In this document: positions 368 through 16,422 of the stretch, piece after piece
How the letters are laid out: each line of letters opens with the position of its first letter
Position numbering within the stretch: position 1 is the stretch's first letter
Source: a virus
Lineage: Duplodnaviria; Heunggongvirae; Uroviricota; Caudoviricetes
Reading direction: 5' to 3' (one strand)
IMG/VR virus record: IMGVR_UViG_2877285697_000001
Coordinates: 1-16,422 of that record
Length of the DNA stretch: 16,422 nt
Notes under the pieces: model-generated
What the model was told of the DNA's origin: nothing
Database searches by the model: none
The model's input: the letters and a program-made list of their open reading frames with translations, nothing else
Position numbers and translations under genes: made by a program

Positions 368-535
368 GGTGATATCACCACTATCCAGTCGTTACGCCAT
401 ACCTCCGATCTTGATACCGGAGAGATGTATGTCTTCCTGTGTAAGGTTGAAGCCTGGGCGATGAATATTGGTTGCCATCTGACTATTCCGCAGAGCTGCG
501 AGTTCCAGCAGCTCCGCGACAAGCAGGAGGCGTAA
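368..535 (+). pseudogene. 3' fragment of the lambdoid nin-region gene preceding ninE (ybcN-like by synteny only); 5' part removed by IS600
   Basis: Open frame runs from the IS600 terminus at 367 to TAA at 533-535, which overlaps the ninE ATG; no start codon inside the window. Confidence 0.45.
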
Positions 536-705
536 TGGCTACACCGCTTATTCGTGTCATGAACGGACACATCTACAGAGTACCAAATCGTCGTAAGCGT
601 AAGCCTGAGCTGAAGCCATCCGAAATACCAACACTGCTCGGATATACCGCCAGCCTGGTTGATAAAAAATGGTTGCGACTGGCAGCAAGGAGGAGTCATG
701 GCTGA
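535..705 (+). CDS. ninE: NinE (56 aa)
   Basis: [56 protein letters not shown]; ATG at 535 inside the longer track ORF 472-705; DLP12 ninE by recollection and synteny. Confidence 0.8.
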   Translation: MATPLIRVMNGHIYRVPNRRKRKPELKPSEIPTLLGYTASLVDKKWLRLAARRSHG

Positions 706-988
706 TTTGAGAAAAGCAGCGCGTGGTCGGGAATGCCAGGTAAGAATCCCTGGCGTATGTAATGGCAACCCTGAAACGTCTGTACTGGCACATATTTGGC
801 TGGCTGGATTGTGCGGCACCGGTATTAAACCGCCAGACCTGATTGCCACCATTGCATGTTCTGCCTGTCACGATGAGATCGACCGTCGCACGAATTTTGT
901 TGACGCTGGATATGCAAAAGAATGCGCGCTGGAAGGTCTGGCGAGAACACAGGTTATCTGGCTGAAAGAGGGGGTTATTAAGGCGTGA
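698..988 (+). CDS. ybcO: YbcO, DUF1364-type putative nuclease (96 aa)
   Basis: ATG at 698 preceded by AGGAGG (688-693); [30 protein letters not shown]...; overlaps ninE stop. Confidence 0.8.
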
Positions 989-1347
989 ATACCTACAGCA
1001 TCACACTACCCTGGCCGCCGAGCAATAACCGCTACTACCGCCATAATCGAGGGCGCACGCACATCAGCGCAGAAGGGCAGGCATACCGCGATAACGTCGC
1101 CCGAATCATTAAAGGCTCAATGCTGGATATCGGTCTGGCTATGCCTGTGAAAATCCGCATTGAGTGCTACATGCCGGATCGCCGTCGCCGTGACCTGGAT
1201 AATCTACAAAAAGCCTCTTTTGATGCACTCACCAAAGCAGGTTTCTGGCTGGATGATGCTCAGGTCGTTGATTACCGCGTTGTGAAGATGCCGGTTGTCA
1301 AAGGTGGAAAGCTGGAACTGACCATCACTGAACTGGGAGATGAATGA
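985..1347 (+). CDS. rusA: RusA Holliday-junction resolvase (120 aa), GTG start overlapping ybcO stop
   Basis: [26 protein letters not shown]...[14 protein letters not shown], near-identical to recalled E. coli K-12 RusA. Confidence 0.9.
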
Positions 1348-1484
1348 TGTTTGAGTTTTATATGGCAGAACTTCTTCGCCACCGCTGGATGCGCCTGCGC
1401 TTATATCGTTTCCCCAGTTCTGTTTTGACCGATTACCGAATACTGAGGAATTACGCCAAAACCCTGACAGGAGCAGGAGTATGA
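1344..1484 (+). CDS. ylcG: Small protein YlcG (46 aa), below the ORF-track size cutoff
   Basis: ATGATG at 1344 overlapping the rusA stop; translation [46 protein letters not shown], stop TGA 1482-1484. Confidence 0.55.
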
Positions 1485-1569
1485 AGTCAGAGATAACAAT
1501 CAACTAATACTGTTTTGTTGATTTTTGCTTGTAATTGGCGTTCTGGTCTGATTTTTGTGGAGTAAGTTG

Positions 1570-1953
1570 ATGCGTGATATTCAGATGGTTCTTGAGCGTT
1601 GGGGAGCGTGGGCGGCTAATAATCATGAAGATGTGACCTGGTCGTCCATTGCCGCCGGTTTTAAGGGATTAATTCCTTCAAAAGTAAAATCTCGCCCGCA
1701 ATGTTGTGACGATGACGCGATGATCATTTGCGGGTGCATGGCCCGTCTGAAAAAGAACAACAGCGATTTGCACGATTTATTAGTAGATTATTATGTAGTC
1801 GGTATGACATTCATGTCACTGGCAGGTAAGCATTGCTGCTCTGATGGTTATATCGGGAAAAGGTTACAGAAGGCTGAGGGCATAATTGAAGGGATGTTAA
1901 TGGCATTAGATATTCGGTTAGAGATGGATATCGTTGTTAATAACTCTAATTAA
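1570..1953 (+). CDS. quuD: Late-gene antiterminator Q (127 aa)
   Basis: [34 protein letters not shown]... from ATG 1570; the track ORF begins at an upstream TTG at 1555. Confidence 0.85.
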
Positions 1954-1969
1954 TATGCCAATTGTTTAC

Positions 1970-2004
1970 TAAAAATTATTAAAAATGGGGCGTTGCAACG
2001 CCCC
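1970..2004 (-). terminator. Candidate intrinsic terminator for the minus-strand porin transcript
   Basis: Perfect palindrome GGGGCGTTGCAACGCCCC (1987-2004); on the minus strand it is followed by a T-rich run (complement of 1970-1986). Confidence 0.4.
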
Positions 2005-2141
2005 CAAAAATAAAGGGTAATATATAACAGAAGGTTTATATAGTTAGAAGCAAGGTTGTGCTCCTAAAGGAAGTGGCTTGAGGGAGCCACTTATATGTTG
2101 GGGAGGCAAAGCCTCCCGCAACATATCTTTTAGTAATCAAA

Positions 2142-3224
2142 TTAGAACTGGTAAACCATACCTACAGCAACGATATCATCGGTAGCAACGCCAGATGCTT
2201 TCGTGAAATCGCTCTTATCAATCAGGTTGATTTTGTAATCAACAAAAGTGGACATATTTTTGTTGAAGTAATAGGTTGCACCTACATCAATATATTCAAC
2301 CAGGTCCTGATCACCCCACGCACCCAAGTCTTTTCCTTTAGATTGCAGGTAAGCAACGGACGGACGCAGACCGAAGTCGAACTGATATTGTGCAACTACT
2401 TCGAAGTTTTGTGCTTTGTTGGCAATATGGTTATTACCAAAAACAGTCATGTTCTGGGTTTCAGAATAGGTGGTAGCCAGATAGATGTTGTTCGCATCAT
2501 ATTTCAGACCAGCTGCCCATACTTCAGCATTTTGACCAGATGCATTCAGGCTGTTGTTACCGTAGATAACCTGATTATTAGTGCGGTCAGATTTAGCATA
2601 GGTTGCACCTACACCGAATCCTTCATACTCATAAGTAGTGGAGAAACCGAAACCATCACCATTAGCTTCAGTTACGTCAGTGCGGTCATTTTTACCCTGA
2701 TACTGAGCAGCAAAGTTCAGACCATCAACCAGACCAAAGAAGTCGTTGTTACGATAAGTTGCAACACCAGTGGTGCGACCAGTCATGAACACATCTGTTT
2801 GGCTCCAGGTATCGCCACCGAATTCTGGCAGAACGTCAGTCCACGCACCGATGTCATATGCTACACCGTAGTTACGGCCGTAATCGATTGAGCCGTAGTC
2901 CCCGAATTTCAGGCCTGCAAATGCAAGACGGGTTTTGTCTTTGGAGGAGCCTTGAGATTCAGCGCGGTTACCTTTGAATTCATATTCCCACTGACCGAAA
3001 CCAGTCAGTTGATCGTTGATTTGGGTTTCACCTTTGAAGCCAAGACGGGCATAAGTAGTATCACCATCATCTGCATCATTAGAGGAGAAGTAGTGCTTGG
3101 CATTAACTTTCCCGTACAGATCCAGCTTGTTACTGTCTTTATTATAAATTTCAGCTGCCTGAGCAGACATCGCCATCAGTACTGATGCAGCTACAGCAGA
3201 AATTGCCACTGTTAATTTTTTCAT
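2142..3224 (-). CDS. nmpC: Outer-membrane general porin NmpC (OmpC/OmpF/OmpD family), intact 360 aa with signal peptide
   Basis: [23 protein letters not shown] signal peptide, porin repeats, C-terminal ...VGMVYQF; sits between Q and holin as in DLP12. Confidence 0.9.
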
Positions 3225-3812
3225 CGTGAGCCCTTTTTTTTGAACTATTATTAAAAAATGATGTCACTGCGCGATAAATATTCATCTAATCAATGTGATT
3301 ATTTCAAGATGTAAGTTTTAGTTTCTCATTTAATTTGTGAAGTAGATCTCTATTTTTATCTGAACTTTTTCTATCGAAACCTATTTATGGCTCTTATTTG
3401 AACAAAAATAAACCTATTAGCTAATTTATATTAATGGCTGTTATTTATGGGGGTTCTATAATTCGGTGGTTTAATTTAAATCAACTAAAAATAACGCCGG
3501 AAATTATTTATTGGTTATTTGTTGAGGTTTTCTTATGTATTTGTGGTGGTGTTTTGAACACTCGGTAGCATTCTCATAAATATCATTCAGTGGTTTACGT
3601 ACGTAAAAAATTGGTTATGCTGTTAAGAGTGGTTACTTCGTCACGCAGCTTAAACCCGCCGTCGAGCTGGTTTTTCCATTTTTTGAGTCTCGATATTAGC
3701 TGATAACTCAATACCTGAGTTATTCACTGACTCCGAGTCTGTTACGTTTCTGCTTTTTTGCGATACGTTGTATTCCCTCAATTTACACCCGCTTTGTCTG
3801 CGAGGTGGGGTT

Positions 3813-4028
3813 ATGAAATCCATGGATAAGTTAACAACGGGTGTCGCCTATGGCACCTCAGCAGGTAGTGCCGGTTACTGGTTTTTACAGCTGCTCGATA
3901 AAGTCACGCCCTCACAGTGGGCAGCAATAGGTGTGCTGGGTAGCCTGGTATTTGGCCTGCTGACGTACCTGACAAACCTTTATTTCAAGATTAAAGAAGA
4001 TAAGCGCAAGGCTGCGAGAGGTGAATAA
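3813..4028 (+). CDS. essD: Holin EssD (71 aa)
   Basis: [71 protein letters not shown] from ATG 3813. Confidence 0.8.
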
Positions 4029-4408
4029 TGCCTCCATCATTACGAAAAGCCGTTGCTGCTGCTATTGGTGGCGGAGCAATTGCTATAGCATCAGTGTTAA
4101 TCACTGGCCCAGGTGGTAACGATGGTCTGGAAGGTGTCAGCTACATACCATACAAAGATATTGTTGGTGTATGGACTGTATGTCACGGGCATACAGGAAA
4201 AGACATCATGCTCGGTAAAACGTATACCAAAGCAGAATGCAAAGCCCTCCTGAATAAAGACCTTGCCACGGTCGCCAGACAAATTAACCCGTACATAAAA
4301 GTTGATATACCGGAAACAACGCGCGGCGCTCTTTACTCGTTCGTTTACAACGTGGGCGCTGGCAATTTCAGAACATCGACACTTCTTCGCAAAATAAACC
4401 AGGGCGAT
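4028..4408 (+). pseudogene. rrrD: Endolysin (lysozyme) RrrD, 3'-truncated by IS600 after residue 127
   Basis: [28 protein letters not shown]...; frame stops at TGA 4409-4411 formed by the IS600 terminus TGAGG; recalled K-12 RrrD is about 165 aa. Confidence 0.85.
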
Positions 4409-4472
4409 TGAGGTAGCCTGAGTTTAACGGACACTCCTTCCTGAAATAGAATGGCATCAGAAGGAGCTAATA

Positions 4473-4775
4473 ATGAGCAGAAAAACCCAACGTTACTCTA
4501 AAGAGTTCAAAGCCGAAGCTGTCAGAACGGTTCTTGAAAATCAACTTTCGATCAGTGAAGGCGCTTCCCGATTATCCCTTCCTGAAGGCACTTTAGGACA
4601 ATGGGTTACCGCCGCCAGAAAAGGGCTCGGTACTCCTGGTTCCCACACGGTGGCTGAACTGGAATCTGAAATTCTGCAACTGCGTAAGGCGTTAAATGAA
4701 GCTCGCCTTGAGCGAGATATATTAAAAAAAGCAACAGCGTATTTTGCACAGGAGTCGCTGAAAAATACGCGTTAA
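4473..4775 (+). CDS. IS600 OrfA
   Basis: 100-aa ORF; differs from the copy at 1-303 by one residue (H58 versus R58). Confidence 0.9.
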   Translation: MSRKTQRYSKEFKAEAVRTVLENQLSISEGASRLSLPEGTLGQWVTAARKGLGTPGSHTVAELESEILQLRKALNEARLERDILKKATAYFAQESLKNTR

Positions 4776-4810
4776 TCGAACAATGGCGACAACAATTTCC
4801 CATTGAAGCG

Positions 4811-5629
4811 ATGTGTCAGGTATTTGGTGTATCCAGGAGCGGTTATTACAACTGGGTACAGCATGAACCCTCAGACAGAAAACAAAGTGATGAGCGGCTA
4901 AAACTGGAGATTAAGGTGGCACATATCCGCACTCGCGAAACATATGGAACCCGGCGGCTCCAGACGGAGCTGGCAGAGAATGGCATCATCGTTGGTCGTG
5001 ACCGGCTGGCACGTCTTCGTAAGGAGCTAAGGCTACGCTGTAAGCAGAAACGCAAGTTCAGAGCGACTACGAACCCGAACCACAATCTGCCAGTTGCGCC
5101 AAATCTGCTGAACCAGACGTTCGCTCCTACAGCACCAAATCAGGTCTGGGTGGCGGACCTGACGTATGTTGCCACACAGGAGGGATGGTTGTACCTCGCT
5201 GGCATCAAAGATGTTTATACGTGCGAAATTGTCGGCTACGCCATGGGAGAGCGCATGACAAAAGAGCTGACAGGTAAAGCCCTGTTTATGGCGCTCAGGA
5301 GCCAGCGCCCACCTGCCGGGCTAATCCACCACTCTGATCGAGGTTCACAGTACTGCGCATACGATTACCGGGTCATACAGGAGCAGTCTGGTCTGAAAAC
5401 ATCAATGTCGCGTAAAGGTAACTGTTACGACAACGCTCCGATGGAAAGCTTCTGGGGAACGCTGAAAAATGAGAGCCTGAGCCACTATCGTTTTAATAAC
5501 CGGGATGAAGCCATCTCAGTAATACGGGAATACATTGAGATTTTCTACAATCGTCAGCGTCGTCACTCTCGTCTGGGGAATATCTCCCCGGCAGCCTTCA
5601 GGGAAAAATATCATCAGATGGCTGCTTAA
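4811..5629 (+). CDS. IS600 OrfB, DDE transposase catalytic subunit (made as OrfAB by -1 frameshift)
   Basis: 272-aa ORF with rve-type DDE motifs (...HSDRGSQY...NAPMESFWGTLK...), frame -1 relative to orfA. Confidence 0.9.
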   Translation: MCQVFGVSRSGYYNWVQHEPSDRKQSDERLKLEIKVAHIRTRETYGTRRLQTELAENGIIVGRDRLARLRKELRLRCKQKRKFRATTNPNHNLPVAPNLLNQTFAPTAPNQVWVADLTYVATQEGWLYLAGIKDVYTCEIVGYAMGERMTKELTGKALFMALRSQRPPAGLIHHSDRGSQYCAYDYRVIQEQSGLKTSMSRKGNCYDNAPMESFWGTLKNESLSHYRFNNRDEAISVIREYIEIFYNRQRRHSRLGNISPAAFREKYHQMAA

Positions 5630-5766
5630 AAAAAGAACAAATGGTAGTGTCCGCTATTGCCAGTACACCTCAACCGGTTACGACATCAACCAGGTCTTTG
5701 GTTTCATAACCGAGATATGTGTGTTTGAGAGCATCTTTGTAGTGGTCAACAAAAACTGGCCACCGA

Positions 5767-6915
<1,149 letters not shown>

Positions 6916-6971
6916 TATGGCACCTGTGTTGTTCTGAGGTGAGCATATCACCTCTGTTCAGGTGGCCAAAT

Positions 6972-8228: not shown

Positions 8229-8832
8229 TCAAAAATAAACCTCACCATCAACCATATATTTGAGAGTACTTATCGCCTGCTGGGCGGATATTGTTTTCAT
8301 TAAAGGATAGTGTTTAAAAACAATGCCATTCATAAAATAGATATCACAGGTTTTATTATCTGTATTGATTATGATTTTTTCGAATGTTTTATAGGCAAGT
8401 GTACGACATAGCTCTCGCCCATTTTTACTGGTTAAGTCAATAGCATGAAAATCACCAAGTGAGCTCACCGCTTTACTCTTCAAAGTTTTTAATGATACAG
8501 AAGCCCTTCGTAATTCCTTATCTAATACTCTGATTTTTTCTGCTATAGCGGTAACTTCAGGCGCAACAGATAATGCAGCAATTAAATTATTAATTTTCAT
8601 ATGGAGCTCAATAATTTTCAACTCTAAAGTTTCATTAGCATCTTTCTTGTTTTCAACTGGTTGGATTTTACTACAATTAAAAAGCAACTCATTAATGATA
8701 TTATAATCAACCAAATCTCTCTTTATTGATGGCCTGCCACATCGATGCAGTCTTCTCATCGGACAAACATAATAGCCATGCAAACTTCCAGATACCGCCT
8801 GAACAATCATGGTATTACCACAAGCCTCGCAC
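8229..8832 (-). pseudogene. C-terminal fragment of a large serine recombinase (zinc beta-ribbon plus coiled-coil), N-terminal catalytic part replaced by IS1
   Basis: PCEACGNTMIVQAVSGSLHGYYVCPMRRLHRCGRP matches the recombinase zinc-ribbon pattern C-x2-C...YYxC...C, followed by coiled-coil-like LELKIIELHMKINNLIAAL...; frame is open into the IS1 end at 8833 with no ATG. Confidence 0.55.
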
Positions 8833-8887
8833 GGTAATGCTGCCAACTTACTGATTTAGTGTATGATGGTGATTTTAAGGTGCTTGC

Positions 8888-9694: not shown

Positions 9695-9922
9695 TTAGGC
9701 GGCAGAATTACTCGCGTTAAACAATGGTGCGAGGTCGGGACGAATATCTGCTGGTTTAATCTTTCCACCAGTGGCTGAGACAATTTTCATTACATAGCGG
9801 GCATCAATTCCGCCACCGTGTAGCCAACGCCAAACTGTGGGTTGGGCTACACCGCATAGATCTGCCAGTCGTTTTTGACTACCTGTAATACTGATTGCGA
9901 GTTGAATGGTTTGATTTGTCAT
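9695..9922 (-). CDS. Cro-like HTH regulator (75 aa)
   Basis: MTNQTIQLAISITGSQKRLADLCGVAQPTVWRWLHGG... HTH; ATG (complement of 9920-9922) with AGGA 9 nt upstream; divergent from the repressor gene. Confidence 0.7.
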   Translation of the reverse strand: MTNQTIQLAISITGSQKRLADLCGVAQPTVWRWLHGGGIDARYVMKIVSATGGKIKPADIRPDLAPLFNASNSAA

Positions 9923-10032
9923 TATCAATTCCTGTTGGTATTGCAATGAATGAATAATAGCAATGCGTATTAATCCAAGCAATAGCAAAACGTGTTTTGA
10001 CCATCAATACGCAAGCGTATAAATTAAAACTT
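9923..10032. promoter_or_regulatory. Divergent immunity control region (pR-like and pRM-like promoters with operator dyads)
   Basis: Minus-strand promoter: -35 TTGCTT (complement of 9977-9982), 17-bp spacer, -10 TATTAT (complement of 9954-9959). Dyads AATAGCAATGCGTATT (9956-9971) and ATACGCAAGCGTAT (10007-10020). TATAAA (10017-10022) lies 10 nt before the cI ATG. Confidence 0.45.
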
Positions 10033-10725
10033 ATGAAAAAAGAAACTCTTGCTGATCGCTTAAACCTAGCGATGGAACAATCTGGAATGTCTCAAGGCGC
10101 TCTTGCAAAGGCGTCTGGCGTAGCTCAACCCACAATCTGGAGACTGACAAGCGGCAACGCGCGCGGCTCAACAAAAATTGTTGAAATAGCTAATGCATTG
10201 GGGGTTCGAACAGAATGGCTCTCATCAGGCATAGGCCCGATGAGAAATGACGGTCAACAATCAGGGAAGCCTGCTGTCAGCCATTCAAAATACTTCAAGA
10301 TTGACGTTCTTGATATAGAAGTCAGTGCCGGGCCGGGTGTAATCAACCGTGAGTTTGTAGAAGTTCTACGCTCGGTTGAGTACTCGTTTGACGATGCTCG
10401 TCACATGTTCGATGGCAGGAAGGCGGAAAATATCCGCATCATTAACGTGCGTGGTGACAGCATGTCAGGAACGATCGAACCAGGTGATCTTCTGTTCGTT
10501 GATATCACGGTTAAATCTTTCGACGGTGATGGTATCTATGCGTTTCTGTATGACGACACAGCCCATGTAAAGCGCCTGCAAATGATGAAGGATAAGCTGC
10601 TGGTTATCTCTGATAACAAGAGCTACTCACCGTGGGACCCGATCGAGAAAGACGAGATGAACCGGGTATTCATCTTCGGGAAAGTCATCGGAAGCATGCC
10701 GCAGACGTATAGGAAGCATGGGTAG
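10033..10725 (+). CDS. CI-like prophage repressor, N-terminal HTH plus C-terminal S24 (LexA-like) autopeptidase (230 aa)
   Basis: MKKETLADRLNLAMEQSGMSQGALAKASGVAQPTIWRL... HTH; C-terminal ...RGDSMSGTIEPGDLLFVD...HVKRLQ... Ser/Lys dyad motifs; ATG 10033 chosen inside track ORF 9997-10725. Confidence 0.85.
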   Translation: MKKETLADRLNLAMEQSGMSQGALAKASGVAQPTIWRLTSGNARGSTKIVEIANALGVRTEWLSSGIGPMRNDGQQSGKPAVSHSKYFKIDVLDIEVSAGPGVINREFVEVLRSVEYSFDDARHMFDGRKAENIRIINVRGDSMSGTIEPGDLLFVDITVKSFDGDGIYAFLYDDTAHVKRLQMMKDKLLVISDNKSYSPWDPIEKDEMNRVFIFGKVIGSMPQTYRKHG

Positions 10726-10836
10726 TGAAGGACGTGTCAACTCTATTTTGTAAGCTATCCAGACTCACAGTTGCAGATCGACGAGTAACTTACATACAGC
10801 ACAAAAAAACAATATGCGCGTGCTTTTAGACTAGAC

Positions 10837-10851
10837 TTACCATAATGGTAA
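10837..10851. promoter_or_regulatory. Perfect 15-bp palindrome TTACCATAATGGTAA overlapping the first ATG of the toxin gene
   Basis: Exact dyad symmetry (7-1-7) read directly from the sequence. Confidence 0.35.
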
Positions 10852-11255
10852 CAAGTATGATTCTTAGCAGATATGTGGGAACTCCTCCCCGTGATGGCGA
10901 GGACAGAAAGATTCAAGGTGGTCCGCTTTATTTAGATATCATTGATTTGATTGATGAATGTGACACACTGCCTTGGACCAGACGGTGTATCAGGGATGTT
11001 CAATCGCTTTCTTTAGATGCAGATGACATCAAATCTATGGTGATAAAAGCAGTCACTAAAGGGAGATTTCTAGGTTCAGAATGGTGTCAAGGCAGTAAAC
11101 CAGGTGTATGGGCAGCTTGTGATGCTTATAGCTTTGAGCACTCATTTTGGTGCCAAGCTATGCATAAAGAACTTAATAACGAGTTCTACATTAAATTTTT
11201 TGTAAACATTACTGGCAATGTAGTGCTTACAGTATCTCTTCATCTCTCTAATTGA
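10845..11255 (+). CDS. MqsR-like toxin (putative mRNA interferase); start may instead be ATG 10857
   Basis: Blocks shared with recalled E. coli MqsR: ...TRR...LSLD, DDIKSM (MqsR SDFYKSM), EFYIKFFVNITGNVVLTVSL (MqsR QVYLKITVIHDVLIVSF); toxin gene precedes antitoxin as in mqsRA. Confidence 0.6.
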   Translation: MVTSMILSRYVGTPPRDGEDRKIQGGPLYLDIIDLIDECDTLPWTRRCIRDVQSLSLDADDIKSMVIKAVTKGRFLGSEWCQGSKPGVWAACDAYSFEHSFWCQAMHKELNNEFYIKFFVNITGNVVLTVSLHLSN

Positions 11256-11279
11256 GTGATGATAAATGAGGATTTTTAT

Positions 11280-11867
11280 ATGAGAAACAACAACATATGT
11301 CCAGTTTGTGGTGTAGGTCATCTCACCGTGGAGATGGAGTATGATGATGTTACTTATAAAGGGGAAACAAAAAATCTCCCAATAAGGTTTTCTGTGTGTG
11401 ATCAATGTGGTTCGGAAACTGCCACACCAGTCGATTTACGAGAAAACAAACGAATTTTCAATGAATACAAAAAGTCTATCGATGGACTTTTAACAGGAAA
11501 AGAATTAAAAAAAATTAGAACTGAAGTATGGATGATAACCCAGCAAAAGGCATCCTCTATATTTGGTGGGGGGCCTAAGGCATTTTCCAAGTATGAATCT
11601 GATGATGTCATTCAATCAGAAGCAATGGATAAACTGATGCGTTTAGCAGCAGAAGTTCCTGATGCATTCAAAAGGTTACGGGAATTATCTGGCGAAATCA
11701 AAGTTGAAAGAACAGTCTCATCATCTAAATCTTTACCTATATGGAAATCTGAAGCAAAAGCACAATTTGAAAACGATGATCAGGGATTTGACAGCAAATC
11801 ACCAGCCCAAACAAAAATGAATCAAACATCAATAAAGATAAAAACTGTTGCTAAGCGGGTAGCATGA
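11280..11867 (+). CDS. MqsA-like antitoxin (zinc-ribbon plus XRE-type HTH) with about 60-aa C-terminal extension (195 aa)
   Basis: MRNNNICPVCGVGHL...CDQCGSE zinc ribbon; LTGKELKKIRTEVWMITQQKASSIFGGGPKAFSKYE matches the recalled MqsA HTH block (IFGGGVNAFSRYE); GAGGA 7 nt upstream of ATG 11280; canonical MqsA is about 131 aa. Confidence 0.75.
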   Translation: MRNNNICPVCGVGHLTVEMEYDDVTYKGETKNLPIRFSVCDQCGSETATPVDLRENKRIFNEYKKSIDGLLTGKELKKIRTEVWMITQQKASSIFGGGPKAFSKYESDDVIQSEAMDKLMRLAAEVPDAFKRLRELSGEIKVERTVSSSKSLPIWKSEAKAQFENDDQGFDSKSPAQTKMNQTSIKIKTVAKRVA

Positions 11868-12367
11868 TGAATGAACTTCTTAGATCAGCAATAGACGCAT
11901 TATCAATAATGCATATCAATATCAGAGAATCTAACTTTGCTTTTTCTGAAGGGTATAATAGCTTTAACTTCAACAGCATAAATAAGCAAACACAATCATT
12001 TCGTAAGATAAAAAAAATCGAAGCTATTGAATTAGTAAGTGACGATGACTCATTAAAAAATGAGCTATATTACTCTTTTCACTACTCAGTTGGGCTTAGA
12101 TTTATTGCAAAATCCGAAGAAACATCTAAAGACGAAAATGATGTTGATACAATTTTTTCTATAGAAGCAATTTTTGAGGCGATATATCGCTCAAAGAGAG
12201 AATTATCTAAAGAAGAGTTAGAAGAATTTGCTAAGCAAAATGTAGGTTTTAATGTATGGCCTTTTTGGCGAGAGTATGTTCAAAACAGCACATCCAGAAT
12301 GGGAATTACTACAATAGCTATACCATTCTTTAAATTCAATAAATCAGACATACCTTCATTAGATTAA
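11864..12367 (+). CDS. SecB-like chaperone (167 aa), translationally coupled to the antitoxin (ATGA overlap)
   Basis: N-terminal LSIMHINIRESNFAFS versus SecB FQIQRIYTKDISFEAP; C-terminal TIFSIEAIF and NVWPFWREYVQNSTSRMG...IPFFKF versus SecB GGIFSIAGIE and NILFPYARECITSMVSRG...APVNF (E. coli SecB from recollection). Confidence 0.55.
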   Translation: MMNELLRSAIDALSIMHINIRESNFAFSEGYNSFNFNSINKQTQSFRKIKKIEAIELVSDDDSLKNELYYSFHYSVGLRFIAKSEETSKDENDVDTIFSIEAIFEAIYRSKRELSKEELEEFAKQNVGFNVWPFWREYVQNSTSRMGITTIAIPFFKFNKSDIPSLD

Positions 12368-12381
12368 ATTCAAATATAACT

Positions 12382-12408
12382 CCCGGCTACCGTGCCGGGT
12401 TTTCTTTT
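12382..12408 (+). terminator. Rho-independent terminator ending the repressor/TAC transcription unit
   Basis: CCCGGC-taccgt-GCCGGG stem-loop followed by TTTTCTTTT, 15 nt after the chaperone stop. Confidence 0.65.
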
Positions 12409-12549
12409 GTCCCCTCCCCTCATCACACACCGTTCAAAAAACCACCACGACCTCACTTCAGTTATCGCTATGCGATGCAAGTCACAAAATTAATTCTTTT
12501 TGCTATCAAACATTTAATATCAAAACACATCAACTAATAGCAGTGAGTA

Positions 12550-12578
12550 TTGGTATCACCAATAGCAATAGCTATTAT
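12550..12578 (+). promoter_or_regulatory. pL-like promoter with embedded operator dyads, reading toward gam-bet-exo
   Basis: -35 TTGGTA (12550-12555), 17-bp spacer, -10 TATTAT (12573-12578); dyads TTGGT-atc-ACCAA (12550-12562) and AATAGC-aata-GCTATT (12561-12576); the latter resembles the oR dyad at 9956-9971 and overlaps the -10 in the same way. Confidence 0.45.
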
Positions 12579-12771
12579 CACCATATCGCAACAACACAAC
12601 GATACGGCAACCACCTGATTCACCGTTGCGATGACCGCTTAGATCCGCAGCTTGAATTTCAGCAGGCTTCGGGGAGTGCGAGGGATGAAACGGACGCGTG
12701 AACGTCGGTGTGACCAGCTGAAATCAACTCAACATTTCATACCTTAGTCGCTTCAACGAGGCGGCTTAGTT

Positions 12772-13062
12772 ATGACAACCGGCGGCCATCCACCGCCTGA
12801 ATACGCGCAGAAGTCTTTATATGTTCAGCAGCCCAGCTTACGGGCAGGAGTTTTTATGGTTCATCAACATTACGGAACGCAGACCGTTAATCGCGGTGCG
12901 GTCATGCCAGGAATGCTGGTCAAACGCAAAGATGGTACCTGGACTGCATCAGCTAATTTACGCGGACGACTTTATCTGCATCGCGGCATTGAGCGCACTT
13001 ATACCCGTGACTTGCTCGTGGAAGTTTTTCTCGACGGACGCGGCAACGGTCTGAATCACTAA
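12772..13062 (+). CDS. Hypothetical protein in the kil position (start uncertain: 12772, 12856 or 12904)
   Basis: ORF ends at TAA 13060-13062 inside the TCACTAA motif that I recall as the lambda kil stop overlapping the long gam leader; protein unlike lambda Kil. Confidence 0.4.
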   Translation: MTTGGHPPPEYAQKSLYVQQPSLRAGVFMVHQHYGTQTVNRGAVMPGMLVKRKDGTWTASANLRGRLYLHRGIERTYTRDLLVEVFLDGRGNGLNH

Positions 13063-13137
13063 TCCCCTTTCCTGTTTTCCGAATCAGCCTGGCATTCCGC
13101 GGGCGATTTTTTCACAGCCATTTTCAGGAGTTCAGCC

Positions 13138-13434
13138 ATGAACGCTTATTACATTCAGGATCGTCTTGAGGCTCAGAGCTGGGCGCGTCACTACCAGCAG
13201 ATCGCCCGTGAAGAGAAAGAGGCAGAACTGGCAGACGACATGGAAAAAGGCCTGCCCCAGCACCTGTTTGAATCGCTATGCATCGATCATTTGCAACGCC
13301 ACGGGGCCAGCAAAAAAGCCATTACCCGTGCGTTTGATGACGATGTTGAGTTTCAGGAGCGCATGGCAGAACACATCCGGTACATGGTTGAAACCATTGC
13401 TCACCATCAGGTTGATATTGATTCAGAGGTATAA
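13138..13434 (+). CDS. gam: Gam (short form GamS, 98 aa), RecBCD inhibitor
   Basis: [56 protein letters not shown]..., near-identical to recalled lambda Gam; AGGAG 7 nt upstream. Confidence 0.9.
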
Positions 13435-13439
13435 AACGG

Positions 13440-14225
13440 ATGAGTACAGCACTCGCAACGCTGGCTGGGAAGCTGGCTGAACGTGTCGGCATGGATTCTG
13501 TCGACCCACAGGAACTGATCACCACTCTTCGCCAGACGGCATTTAAAGGCGATGCCAGCGATGCGCAGTTCATCGCATTGTTGATCGTCGCCAACCAGTA
13601 CGGCCTTAATCCGTGGACGAAAGAAATTTACGCCTTCCCTGACAAGCAGAACGGCATCGTTCCGGTGGTGGGCGTTGATGGCTGGTCCCGTATCATCAAT
13701 GAAAACCAGCAGTTTGATGGCATGGACTTTGAGCAGGACAATGAATCCTGCACATGCCGGATTTACCGCAAGGACCGTAATCATCCGATCTGCGTTACCG
13801 AGTGGATGGATGAATGCCGCCGCGAACCATTCAAAACCCGCGAAGGCAGAGAAATCACGGGGCCGTGGCAGTCGCATCCCAAACGGATGTTACGTCATAA
13901 AGCCATGATTCAGTGTGCCCGTCTGGCCTTCGGATTTGCTGGTATCTATGACAAGGATGAAGCCGAGCGCATTGTCGAAAATACCGCATACACTGCAGAA
14001 CGTCAGCCGGAACGCGACATCACTCCGGTTAACGATGAAACCATGCAGGAGATTAACACTCTGCTGATTGCCCTGGATAAAAAATGGGATGACGACTTAT
14101 TGCCGCTCTGTTCCCAGATATTTCGCCGCGACATTCGCGCATCGTCAGAACTGACACAGGTCGAAGCAGTGAAAGCTCTCGGATTCCTGAAACAGAAAGC
14201 CACTGAGCAGAAGGTGGCAGCATGA
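13440..14225 (+). CDS. bet: Bet (Red-beta) single-strand annealing protein (261 aa)
   Basis: [72 protein letters not shown]..., near-identical to recalled lambda Bet. Confidence 0.95.
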
Positions 14226-14902
14226 CACCGGACATTATCCTGCAGCGTACCGGGATCGATGTGAGAGCTGTCGAACAGGGGGATGATGCGTGGCACAAAT
14301 TACGGCTCGGCGTCATCACCGCTTCAGAAGTTCACAACGTGATAGCAAAACCCCGCTCCGGAAAGAAGTGGCCTGACATGAAAATGTCCTACTTCCACAC
14401 CCTGCTTGCCGAGGTTTGCACCGGTGTGGCTCCGGAAGTTAACGCTAAAGCACTGGCCTGGGGAAAACAGTACGAGAACGACGCCAGAACCCTGTTTGAG
14501 TTCACTTCCGGCGTGAATGTTATTGAATCCCCGATCATCTATCGCGACGAAAGTATGCGCACCGCCTGCTCTCCCGATGGTTTATGCAGTGATGGCAACG
14601 GCCTTGAACTGAAATGCCCGTTTACCTCCCGGGATTTCATGAAGTTCCGGCTCGGTGGTTTCGAGGCCATAAAATCGGCTTACATGGCCCAGGTGCAGTA
14701 CAGCATGTGGGTGGCACGAAAAGATGCCTGGTACTTTGCCAACTATGACCCGCGGATGAAGCGTGAAGGCCTGCATTATGTCGTGATTGAGCAGGATGAA
14801 AAGTACATGGCGAGTTTTGACGAGATGGTGCCGGAGTTCATCGAAAAAATGGACGAGGCACTGGCTGAAATTGGTTTTGTATTTGGGGAGCAATGGCGAT
14901 GA
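14222..14902 (+). CDS. exo: Exo (Red-alpha) 5'-3' exonuclease (226 aa)
   Basis: [68 protein letters not shown]...; ATGA overlap with bet as in lambda. Confidence 0.95.
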
Positions 14903-15081
14903 AGCATCCTCACGATAATATCCGGGTAGGCGCGATCACTTTCGTCTACTCCGTTACAAAGCGAGGCTGGGTATTTCCCGGCCTTTCTGTTACCCGAAAT
15001 CCCCTGAAAGCACAGCGGCTGGCTGAGGAGATAAATAATAAACGGGGAGCTGTATGCACAAAGCATCTCCTGTTGAGTTAA
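14893..15081 (+). CDS. Lambda orf60a-like small protein (62 aa)
   Basis: [33 protein letters not shown]..., position immediately after exo as in lambda. Confidence 0.65.
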
Positions 15082-15245
15082 GAACGAGCATTGAGATGGC
15101 ACATAGCCTCGCTCAAATTGGAGTCAGGTTTGTGCCAATACCAGTAGAAACAGACGAAGAATTTCATACGTTAGCCGCATCCCTTTCACAAAAGCTGGAA
15201 ATGATGGTGGCGAAAGCAGAAGCAGATGAGAGAGACCAGGTATGA
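15054..15245 (+). CDS. Lambda orf63-like small protein (63 aa)
   Basis: Track [66 protein letters not shown]; position and size as lambda orf63. Confidence 0.55.
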   Translation: MHKASPVELRTSIEMAHSLAQIGVRFVPIPVETDEEFHTLAASLSQKLEMMVAKAEADERDQV

Positions 15246-15321
15246 CAACCACTGAATGCATTTTTCTGGTAGCGGGCTTCATATTCTGTGTGCTTATGCT
15301 TGCCGACATGGGACTTGTTCA

Positions 15322-15537
15322 ATGACACCTCAGCAAGAAAACGCCCTTCGCAGTATTGCCCGTCAGGCTAATTCTGAAATCAAAAAAGCCAGACAGCAGT
15401 TTCCGGATAAAAACGTCGATGACATTTGCCGTAGCGTACTGAAGAAGCACCGCGAAACGGTAACGCTGATGGGATTCACACCGACTCATTTAAGCCTGGC
15501 GATCGGCATGTTAAACGGCGTCTTTAAGGAACGGTGA
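15322..15537 (+). CDS. Lambda orf61-like small protein
   Basis: MTPQQENALRSIARQANSEIKKARQQFPDKNVDDICRSVLKKHRETVTLMGFTPTHLSLAIGMLNGVFKER from ATG 15322 inside track ORF 15256-15537. Confidence 0.55.
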   Translation: MTPQQENALRSIARQANSEIKKARQQFPDKNVDDICRSVLKKHRETVTLMGFTPTHLSLAIGMLNGVFKER

Positions 15538-15559
15538 GCATGAAAAACAAAATCATCAT

Positions 15560-15583
15560 GGAGCTACAGGCTCCTTTTTTATT
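15560..15583 (+). terminator. Candidate intrinsic terminator after the orf61-like gene
   Basis: GGAGC-tacag-GCTCC followed by TTTTTTATT. Confidence 0.45.
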
Positions 15584-15635
15584 ATTCGCATTCACCCTCA
15601 AGCGTATTAACCAACAATTCAGGGATTAATGAAAG

Positions 15636-15669: not shown

Positions 15670-15724
15670 GGTAATGCTGCCAACTTACTGATTTAGTGTA
15701 TGATGGTGATTTTAAGGTGCTTGC

Positions 15725-16000
15725 GTGGCTTCCATTTCCATCAGATGTCCTTCCTGCTCCGCTACTGAAGGCGTGGTGCGTAACGGCAAAAGCACTGCCG
15801 GACATCAGCGCTATCTCTGCTCTCATTGCCGTAAAACATGGCAACTACAGTTCACTTACACCGCCTCTCAGCCCGGTACGCACCAGAAAATCATTGATAT
15901 GGCCATGAATGGCGTCGGATGTCGCGCCAGTGCACGCATTATGGGCGTTGGCCTCAACACGGTTTTACGTCACTTAAAAAACTCAGGCCGCAGTCGGTAA
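15725..16000 (+). CDS. insA: IS1 InsA
   Basis: Identical 91-aa translation to 8888-9163. Confidence 0.95.
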
Positions 16001-16422
16001 CCTCGCGCATACAACCGGGCAGTGATGTGATTGTCTGCGCTGAAATGGACGAACAGTGGGGCTACGTCGGTGCTAAATCACGTCAGCGCTGGCTGTTTTA
16101 CGCGTATGACAGGATACGGAGGACGGTTGTGGCGCACGTCTTCGGTGAACGCACTCTGGCCACACTGGAGCGTCTTCTGAGCCTGCTGTCGGCCTTTGAG
16201 GTCGTGGTATGGATGACGGATGGCTGGCCGCTGTATGAATCACGCCTGAAGGGAAAGCTGCACGTTATCAGCAAGCGTTACACTCAGCGCATTGAGCGAC
16301 ATAATCTGAATCTGAGACAACATCTGGCAAGGCTGGGACGGAAGTCACTGTCGTTCTCAAAATCGGTGGAGCTGCATGACAAGGTCATCGGGCATTATCT
16401 GAACATAAAACACTATCAGTAA
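15919..16422 (+). CDS. insB: IS1 InsB reading frame
   Basis: Identical 167-aa translation to 9082-9585; stop TAA at the window end. Confidence 0.9.

Follow-up and report, generated by a model that had tools for sequence, protein, structure and literature searches.

The window analysed here, the whole 16,422-nucleotide stretch of the IMG/VR virus record IMGVR_UViG_2877285697_000001, carries an intact porin gene in antisense orientation between the late antiterminator gene Q and the phage lysis genes. The whole locus is very probably the classical lc/nmpC lysogenic-conversion cassette of a lambda-like prophage of the PA-2/DLP12/434 type, in its usual intact state. An lc/nmpC porin between Q and the lysis genes has long been known in many lambda-like prophages of E. 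coli and Shigella. The gene itself (lc/nmpC, since the 1980s), the regulation of its promoter PnmpC, the binding of H-NS and the control of the DLP12 lysis cassette by Q have all been described previously, and the significance of the present copy beyond annotation is small. Porins of the lc/nmpC type can alter outer-membrane permeability, sensitivity to phages and colicins, and heat tolerance, and their expression is already known in pathogenic E. coli and Shigella.

Identity and integrity of the porin

The porin gene occupies positions 2142-3224 on the minus strand and encodes a general porin of the lc/nmpC family with 360 residues, the first 23 of which form a signal peptide. The Pfam family Porin_1 was matched by residues 29-360 over profile positions 1-337 of 337 (3.3e-153), a match to PHROG 410 covers residues 1-360 of 360, and the score against the NCBIfam OmpC subfamily (518 bits) lies above the cut-off of 484. 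Residues 24-360 were also shown to align over the full length of the solved OmpC, OmpK36, OmpK37, PhoE and OmpF chains. With Lc of phage PA-2 it shares 90% identity and exactly the same N-terminus, for which the PA-2 record annotates a signal peptide of 23 residues. The C-terminus reads VYQF, and the YQF end is likewise shared with PA-2 Lc. The terminal phenylalanine of porins is needed for export and outer-membrane assembly. By homology, the protein is a general porin of the OmpC/OmpF/PhoE type that belongs to the Lc/NmpC subgroup, and it would form a diffusion channel as a trimer of 16-stranded beta-barrels. The original prediction of a full-length porin with a signal peptide, encoded antisense between Q and the lysis genes, was thus confirmed by the Pfam and NCBIfam matches and by the alignment with PA-2 Lc.

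The lc gene of PA-2 (GenBank J02580; Blasband, Marcotte and Schnaitman, 1986) lies at the same position and on the same strand between Q and the lysis genes. PA-2 Lc has 365 residues against 360 here, and the differences cluster at residues 181-235 and 262-270. The overall dN/dS between the two genes is 0.12, a codon-level signature that the porin gene is under purifying selection. Within the two variable segments dS reaches 1.8, compared with 0.30 elsewhere, which suggests a mosaic allele and not relaxed constraint. By analogy with OmpF, these segments probably correspond to the surface loops L4-L6. The gene is read as intact and constrained because its matches are full length, its dN/dS is low and mosaicism would explain the variable segments. 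The encoded protein differs by a single residue (S141 for T) from an allele found in 21 viral contigs.

Prevalence of the intact allele

The K-12 copy was correctly predicted to be interrupted by an insertion sequence. An IS5 element (IS5B) lies in K-12 nmpC after codon 346, a position at which the window copy is continuous, and a sequenced isolate of phage 434 also has IS5B inside nmpC. The accompanying idea that an intact copy is something out of the ordinary did not hold. Of 5426 complete E. coli genomes, 2333 have the 2.9-kb block of Q, porin, essD and rrrD covered to at least 80%, and in 2192 (about 40%) a 201-bp probe spanning the K-12 IS5 site is uninterrupted. Among IMG/VR loci with a readable ORF, 177 of 182 encode a full-length porin (107 with 360 residues and 70 with 365). 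The intact gene is the rule, and the IS5-interrupted copy of K-12 is the exception. In RefSeq these copies are named 'porin OmpC', a label that masks their origin as a prophage lc/nmpC gene.

Gene order and the convergent junction

The module ybcO, rusA, ylcG, quuD, nmpC, essD and rrrD is the same in the DLP12 prophage of K-12 and in the window, and the block of Q, porin, PR' and essD is also present in phage 434. The left part of the window contains the 3' end of ybcN (from 368) and ninE, followed by ybcO (659-988), rusA (985-1347) and ylcG (1344-1484). The next gene, on the plus strand at 1570-1953, encodes a late antiterminator Q of the quuD type (127 residues; Pfam Phage_antitermQ, 9.7e-54). 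This protein is 99% identical to QuuD of K-12 and 79% identical to Q of the Sakai Stx2 phage Sp5, and has a distant match to the solved Q21 structure (7.4e-8). The mechanically called ORF for Q begins further upstream, with a TTG codon at 1555.

Q and the porin gene end tail to tail at 1954-2141, a junction that contains stable hairpins at 1987-2004, 2071-2092 and 2093-2126. A terminator scan identified the minus-strand hairpin 2004-1987, followed by AUUUUU, as a canonical intrinsic terminator for nmpC. The folding z-scores of the junction are -6.3 for the minus strand and -3.2 for the plus strand, and differences from K-12 and PA-2 within the hairpins are confined to the loops. It is at this cluster of hairpins and terminators that transcription of Q and nmpC converges. 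A scan of positions 1400-4500 against Rfam, with E-values up to 1, returned no match.

Homology between this Q gene and those of Stx phages ends near codon 120, and the edges of the porin cassette were for this reason placed at about 1935 and 3590. The cassette would then comprise an opposite-strand porin gene with its own sigma-70 promoter and its own terminators at 2126-1987. Its left edge would replace the last codons of a Q933-type Q, and its right edge would fall just before the -35 hexamer of PR'.

These are the properties of a moron. The gene runs opposite to the late genes and has its own terminator, and a promoter of its own has been shown experimentally for the near-identical K-12 sequence (PMC11677980). 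The same site is occupied by other cargo in Lambda_2E9 and in SfII, and by none between Q and PR' in Stx phages. In Lambda_2E9, a related Q is followed by Blc and a YbgA-like gene. In the Shigella phage SfII, Q is followed by antisense cargo and then by the same PR'-like block, which immediately precedes the holin gene. SfII differs from the window in that its cargo consists of two unrelated hypothetical genes, its holin is of class I and its sequence at the -35 position is different.

The late promoter and the direction of transcription

The 588-bp intergenic region between the porin gene and essD (3225-3812) was predicted to contain the Q-dependent late promoter, and homology to the PR' that has been mapped in Stx phages bore this out. 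The alignment places the promoter in the right-hand third of the region, on the plus strand at 3594-3628, with TTTACG at -35 (3594-3599), TATGCT at -10 (3616-3621), a spacer of 16 bp and a predicted start at A3628. Positions 3593-3675 are 78% identical to the Stx-phage PR' sequence. In H-19B, Sp5 and hundreds of further Stx phages, the homologous sequence overlaps the 3' end of Q and continues past it, and the cognate Q of the window is itself related to Sp5 Q at the level given above. For Sp5, dRNA-seq has located the primary PR' start, and Term-seq a 3' end 258 nt downstream of it (PMC7547250). The published coordinates were converted to the current record with an offset of +142, and as a check the converted 3' end coincides with the final T in the T-run of the terminator. 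The Sp5 start is the final A in TATCAT-GATAAG-A, and A3628 is the base aligned with it here.

The record of Shigella phage Ss-VASD annotates a matching 28-bp stretch as 'putative late promoter PR''. The hexamers and the +1 region are essentially invariant across 195 loci, with one -10 variant, and the core motif TAAGAGTGGTTAC occurs a single time in the window. When the literature was searched for this core motif as text, only unrelated matches were returned. The DNA upstream of the H-19B holin gene has no homology to the window; the homologue in that phage lies downstream of Q.

Alternatively, the late promoter could lie directly 3' of Q, within 1954-2141, so that Q-modified polymerase would read antisense through the porin gene to essD and collide with porin transcription. 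This order would follow lambda, H-19B and Sp5, in which PR' overlaps the 3' end of Q or comes immediately after it, and the plus-strand hairpin 2093-2126 with its trailing CUUUU could pass for tR'. However, this Q gene ceases to be homologous to Stx-phage Q short of its 3' end, nothing in the 188-bp spacer resembles a PR', and the homologue of the mapped promoter is found at 3594-3675 with a core motif unique in the window. SfII has the same order of Q, antisense genes, PR'-like block and holin. A promoter inside the junction is therefore very improbable.

With PR' at 3594-3628, Q is separated from its promoter by the porin cassette, an arrangement of this phage group, and for that reason porin and late transcription diverge and do not collide. 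The porin gene is read leftward from a promoter placed a few tens of bases upstream of 3224, and PR' fires rightward from 3628. PnmpC and PR' thus lie back to back at a distance of about 360 bp and drive transcription away from each other. The original prediction had the two transcription units converge or overlap within 3225-3812; the promoters there are divergent, and convergence takes place at 1954-2141. Transcripts starting near 3628 would soon reach a short hairpin with a U-run, and Q-modified polymerase would read through it into the pinholin and endolysin genes. The DLP12 lysis operon is under the control of a Q-type antiterminator, RpoE and Hha (PMC7918800). Q-dependent read-through of a terminator in K-12 DLP12 is attributed in that paper to Rueggeberg et al. 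(2013). The '-121 to +650' fragment used in PMC7918800, judged by its primers, spans the whole intergenic region and therefore locates no start site.

The Stx phages (H-19B and 933W/Sp5, the source of the small RNA StxS) have a related Q (79%), a homologous -35, -10 and +1 region and a homologous first hairpin. There, PR' overlaps the 3' end of Q, and stx and tRNA genes are carried as cargo downstream of tR'; the cargo of the window is instead found upstream of PR', where it separates Q from its promoter. The mapped PR' transcript of Stx phages ends at a second terminator at +258 that has no counterpart in the window, and the part from +50 to +258 that yields StxS is also absent.

Composition of the intergenic region and H-NS

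The GC content of 3225-3812 is 33.8%, compared with a window average of 45.8%. The strong AT-richness that had been predicted for the whole region applies to its porin-proximal part, the 369 bp at 3225-3593 (28.7% GC), but not to 3594-3812 (42.5% GC). The composition of the latter is ordinary for this prophage. The lowest-GC stretch of 369 bp in the window begins at 3212; another stretch, near 11809, is about equally AT-rich (29.5% GC). The 588-bp region is 94.7% identical to its counterpart upstream of PA-2 lc, annotated CRP sites included, and 95% identical to that of K-12 DLP12 (mean alignment-column identity, a 16-bp gap included). Among 123 unique variants, 3225-3370, which holds the 5'UTR, PnmpC and a CRP site, is highly conserved. 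Positions from about 3375 to 3560 are the most variable, and 3575-3735 is again highly conserved and, unlike the two AT-rich segments before it, of ordinary composition. Two small ORFs in the region were considered as genes and rejected for want of conservation: across 124 unique variants, the plus-strand frame 3434-3568 is open in only 34 and the minus-strand frame 3650-3823 in 70.

The AT content of 3225-3593 lies well above the window average, as in DNA bound by H-NS. In K-12, the region between nmpC (minus strand) and essD (plus strand) is a 354-bp 'promoter island' that was bound by H-NS in all compiled ChIP-chip data sets (PMC3661553, Table 1). The proposed check of H-NS ChIP data at homologous loci thus gave a positive answer, and with the K-12 region listed as H-NS-bound the idea is already documented for the homologous locus. 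From its composition and the published occupancy of the K-12 homologue, we infer that the AT-rich core is an H-NS target in this strain as well. The H-NS nucleation motif TCGATAAATT, searched in the window with up to two mismatches, gave 19 matches against 20.7 expected, with no enrichment. Matches to this motif were dropped as evidence, their frequency being no higher than chance, and the case for H-NS accordingly draws on composition and the K-12 ChIP data. Silencing by nucleoid proteins, which the original prediction had suggested, stands as far as binding at the K-12 homologue is concerned. As to its extent, H-NS silencing of the porin is at most partial, given that PnmpC is active and other copies are expressed.

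Regulation and expression of the porin

The porin gene would be transcribed leftward from a sigma-70 promoter of its own, no more than about 200 bp from the ATG, as in K-12. There, deletion of -199 to -1 relative to the nmpC ATG was shown to abolish PnmpC function and to lower the transposition of IS5, and a terminator placed after PnmpC also lowered IS5 transposition (PMC11677980). The K-12 transcript starts at a G, as determined by 5' RACE; CRP acts on PnmpC as an activator through two operators, and OmpR, IHF and MprA act as repressors (PMC11677980). The K-12 gene is also under the control of RyhB, and its promoter is active, with detectable transcripts (PMC11677980). The PA-2 record J02580 annotates two CRP sites, which by alignment correspond to 3333-3353 and 3628-3648 here. 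A simple sigma-70 consensus scan of 1900-3900 found no promoter, against 5.0 expected by chance; both PnmpC and PR' are therefore placed by homology and the literature, not by the quality of their consensus.

In other strains, intact copies have been shown to be expressed. The nmpC genes of CFT073 are strongly favoured at 37 C at both the RNA and the protein level (PMC12890032), and anaerobiosis induces nmpC of S. flexneri M90T, in part via FNR (PMC4229854). Because its promoter is embedded in AT-rich DNA of the H-NS-bound type, the porin of the window may be expressed by the lysogenic host under certain conditions only. This expression would respond to CRP, temperature, anaerobiosis, pH and osmolarity.

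Could the porin gene nevertheless be a silent relic, intact by chance, silenced by H-NS and of no use to the host? The low GC content of the upstream DNA (28.7%), the binding of H-NS to the K-12 homologue and the heavy degradation of the surrounding prophage by IS elements would fit such a fate. Yet dN/dS against lc is 0.12, and the ORF is intact in nearly all loci, with disruptions like that of K-12 rare. Activity of PnmpC has been measured in K-12, and in other strains RNA and protein are made from intact copies. In the window itself, the porin gene was kept intact while the adjoining lysis operon was destroyed. A silent relic is on this evidence quite improbable, and an intact porin gene beside a destroyed lysis operon in an IS-riddled genome is consistent with selection for the cargo gene.

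The hairpin downstream of PR'

The initially transcribed region downstream of PR' (3629-3685, plus strand) was compared by alignment with Stx phages, SfII, 434 and K-12. It carries the conserved AGTGGTTAC sequence, a hairpin at 3652-3673 and a U-run, and presumably contains qut and tR'. The hairpin, at +25 to +46, is a candidate tR'. In K-12, 434, SfII and the Stx phages it has a perfect GC-rich stem followed by a U-run. In the window, as in PA-2, a T at 3668 creates a mismatch in the stem, and the folding energy is -5.8 kcal/mol compared with -12 in K-12. The terminator scan calls this hairpin in K-12 but not in the window, where no terminator was called on the plus strand between PR' and essD.

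The T variant is found in 95 viral contigs and the G variant in at least 120. K-12 combines the perfect hairpin (G) with a 16-bp deletion in the essD leader, whereas the window combines T at 3668 with the long form of the leader. The T variant always occurs with the long form (93 of 93), and the 16-bp deletion, which lies between ACGTT direct repeats, was found in the G background only. A compensatory pairing of the T variant with the long leader was considered and rejected; the position of the deletion between direct repeats makes lineage linkage the simpler explanation of their co-occurrence.

In the T-variant lineage (the window, PA-2 and the 95 viral contigs), the destabilised hairpin is the only terminator-like one between PR' and essD. 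A rather unlikely reading of this lineage is that PR' transcripts may extend into the pinholin gene even when Q is absent. In that case the host and not the phage would determine how strongly the lysis cassette is expressed, because the porin cassette places AT-rich DNA bound by H-NS and CRP beside a constitutive PR'. In this strain such read-through would yield the pinholin only, since the endolysin gene is truncated.

The lysis genes and the IS600 elements

The first gene downstream of PR' is essD (3813-4028, plus strand), which encodes a pinholin of the S21 type with 71 residues (Pfam Phage_holin_2_1, the P21 holin S family, 2e-35). Codons 1 and 4 are both ATG, which makes the dual start known from S21 possible, and the record of phage 434 annotates both the S71 and the S68 product for the same essD sequence. 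The endolysin gene rrrD follows at 4028-4408 on the plus strand. It retains the first 126 of 165 codons, with a stop codon supplied by IS600, and the match to the Pfam family Phage_lysozyme is confined to positions 3-96 of 125. Homology to E. coli rrrD ends at 4408, and the end of IS600 starts at 4409. The late operon of this genome is broken. Its rrrD gene, in contrast to that of K-12 DLP12, is cut short by IS600, and what lay beyond has been replaced in full. The genes left intact are those for Q, the porin and the pinholin only, and the lysis operon is dead.

The element at 4409-5672 (plus strand) is a complete IS600 of the IS3 family (NCBIfam transpos_IS3, 1.2e-99), whose ends were read directly. 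A second IS600, on the minus strand at 1-367, is cut by the window edge and truncates ybcN. Positions 1-367 form an inverted repeat that is 100% complementary to 4409-4775, and the inverted pair brackets 368-4408. The full left copy is visible in locus L009, and in the source chromosome the left IS600 lies beyond glk. The abundance of IS600, IS911-like and IS1 elements is of the kind expected in Shigella.

Such an inverted pair, 100% identical over the 367 nt visible, might be taken to make the 4-kb segment 368-4408 a composite transposon that mobilizes the porin gene. The flanks speak against this, in that neither the outer ones (left gcg, right acc) nor those of each single copy form 3-bp target duplications, and the right IS600 abuts the interior of an IS911-like fragment. 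More generally, the 3-bp flanks of the IS600 copies revealed no target duplication that would fit a simple insertion, composite transposition or a single inversion. One match was noted, in which the reverse complement of 368-370 equals 5673-5675; it was rejected because it has a chance of 1 in 64 and would join unrelated sequences. The same block is found in E. coli genomes in an ordinary prophage context without IS600, and an exact search for the rrrD/IS600 junction in the species-representative genomes gave 0 matches. Mobilization as a composite transposon is extremely improbable. The exact truncated RrrD product is also encoded on a 4.56-Mb chromosome, GenBank CP026827.1, in the same gene order.

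Insertion sequences and the arrangement of prophage parts

The late antiterminator gene Q and the lysis genes (368-4408) lie on the same strand of the window as the cI-gam-bet-exo genes (9695-15600). In an intact lambda-like prophage, these two groups of genes are found on opposite strands. The same-strand layout is consistent with either an inversion mediated by insertion sequences or a junction between two distinct prophage remnants. The 4-kb segment that carries Q, the porin gene and the holin gene, running from the truncated ybcN to the truncated endolysin gene rrrD, is flanked on both sides by copies of IS600. The left copy (1-367) is inverted relative to the right copy (4409-5672) and is 100% identical to its matching part (4409-4775) across the visible 367 nt. 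Matching 3-bp target duplications were sought at the flanks of both IS600 copies, and none were found. The right end of IS600 directly adjoins the interior of an IS911-like element of the IS3 family (5673-6951, minus strand), which encodes an OrfA of 112 aa and a frameshifted or truncated orfB.

The break in rrrD was also found in a second assembly. Locus L010 (GCA_026683615.1, contig DAKRAO010000073.1, 2526-3121) encodes a truncated RrrD of 127 aa, exactly as in the window, and the contig stops at this gene. Upstream of the holin gene, however, L010 carries a YbgA-like gene where the window has the porin gene, and therefore the same rrrD break is shared by prophages that differ in their cargo.

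The early region of the window is bounded by another pair of insertion sequences. Two copies of IS1 (8833-~9600 and 15670-16422) are present in direct orientation, 6837 bp apart, and a recombinase-like gene (8229-8846) is cut short by the left one. Between the two IS1 copies is a lambda-like early region with a Cro/YdaS-like gene, a CI-like repressor gene, kil, gam, bet and exo. Lambda-like phages often have defence or exclusion genes at the position just downstream of the CI-like repressor. In the window, this position is occupied by three genes (10845-12367) with products of 136, 203 and 167 aa. The 203-aa product has an MqsA-antitoxin domain, and the other two are without assignment. In AT-richness, a stretch of this region ranks second in the window (29.5% GC near 11809).

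Sequence variants downstream of the late promoter

A single terminator-like hairpin lies between the predicted Q-dependent promoter PR' and the holin gene essD, and a G-to-T change at 3668 makes it weaker (-5.8 versus -12 kcal/mol). The T variant is shared by the window, the porin-carrying phage PA-2 and 95 viral contigs, and is invariably accompanied by the longer allele of a 16-bp indel (3750-3765) flanked by ACGTT repeats. At 3645, +18 of the PR' transcript, the window has G (GTCACGCAGC). This variant had 0 copies among the 194 viral-contig loci compared, nearly all of which have A at the matching position. Stx phages, like the window, have G at this position.
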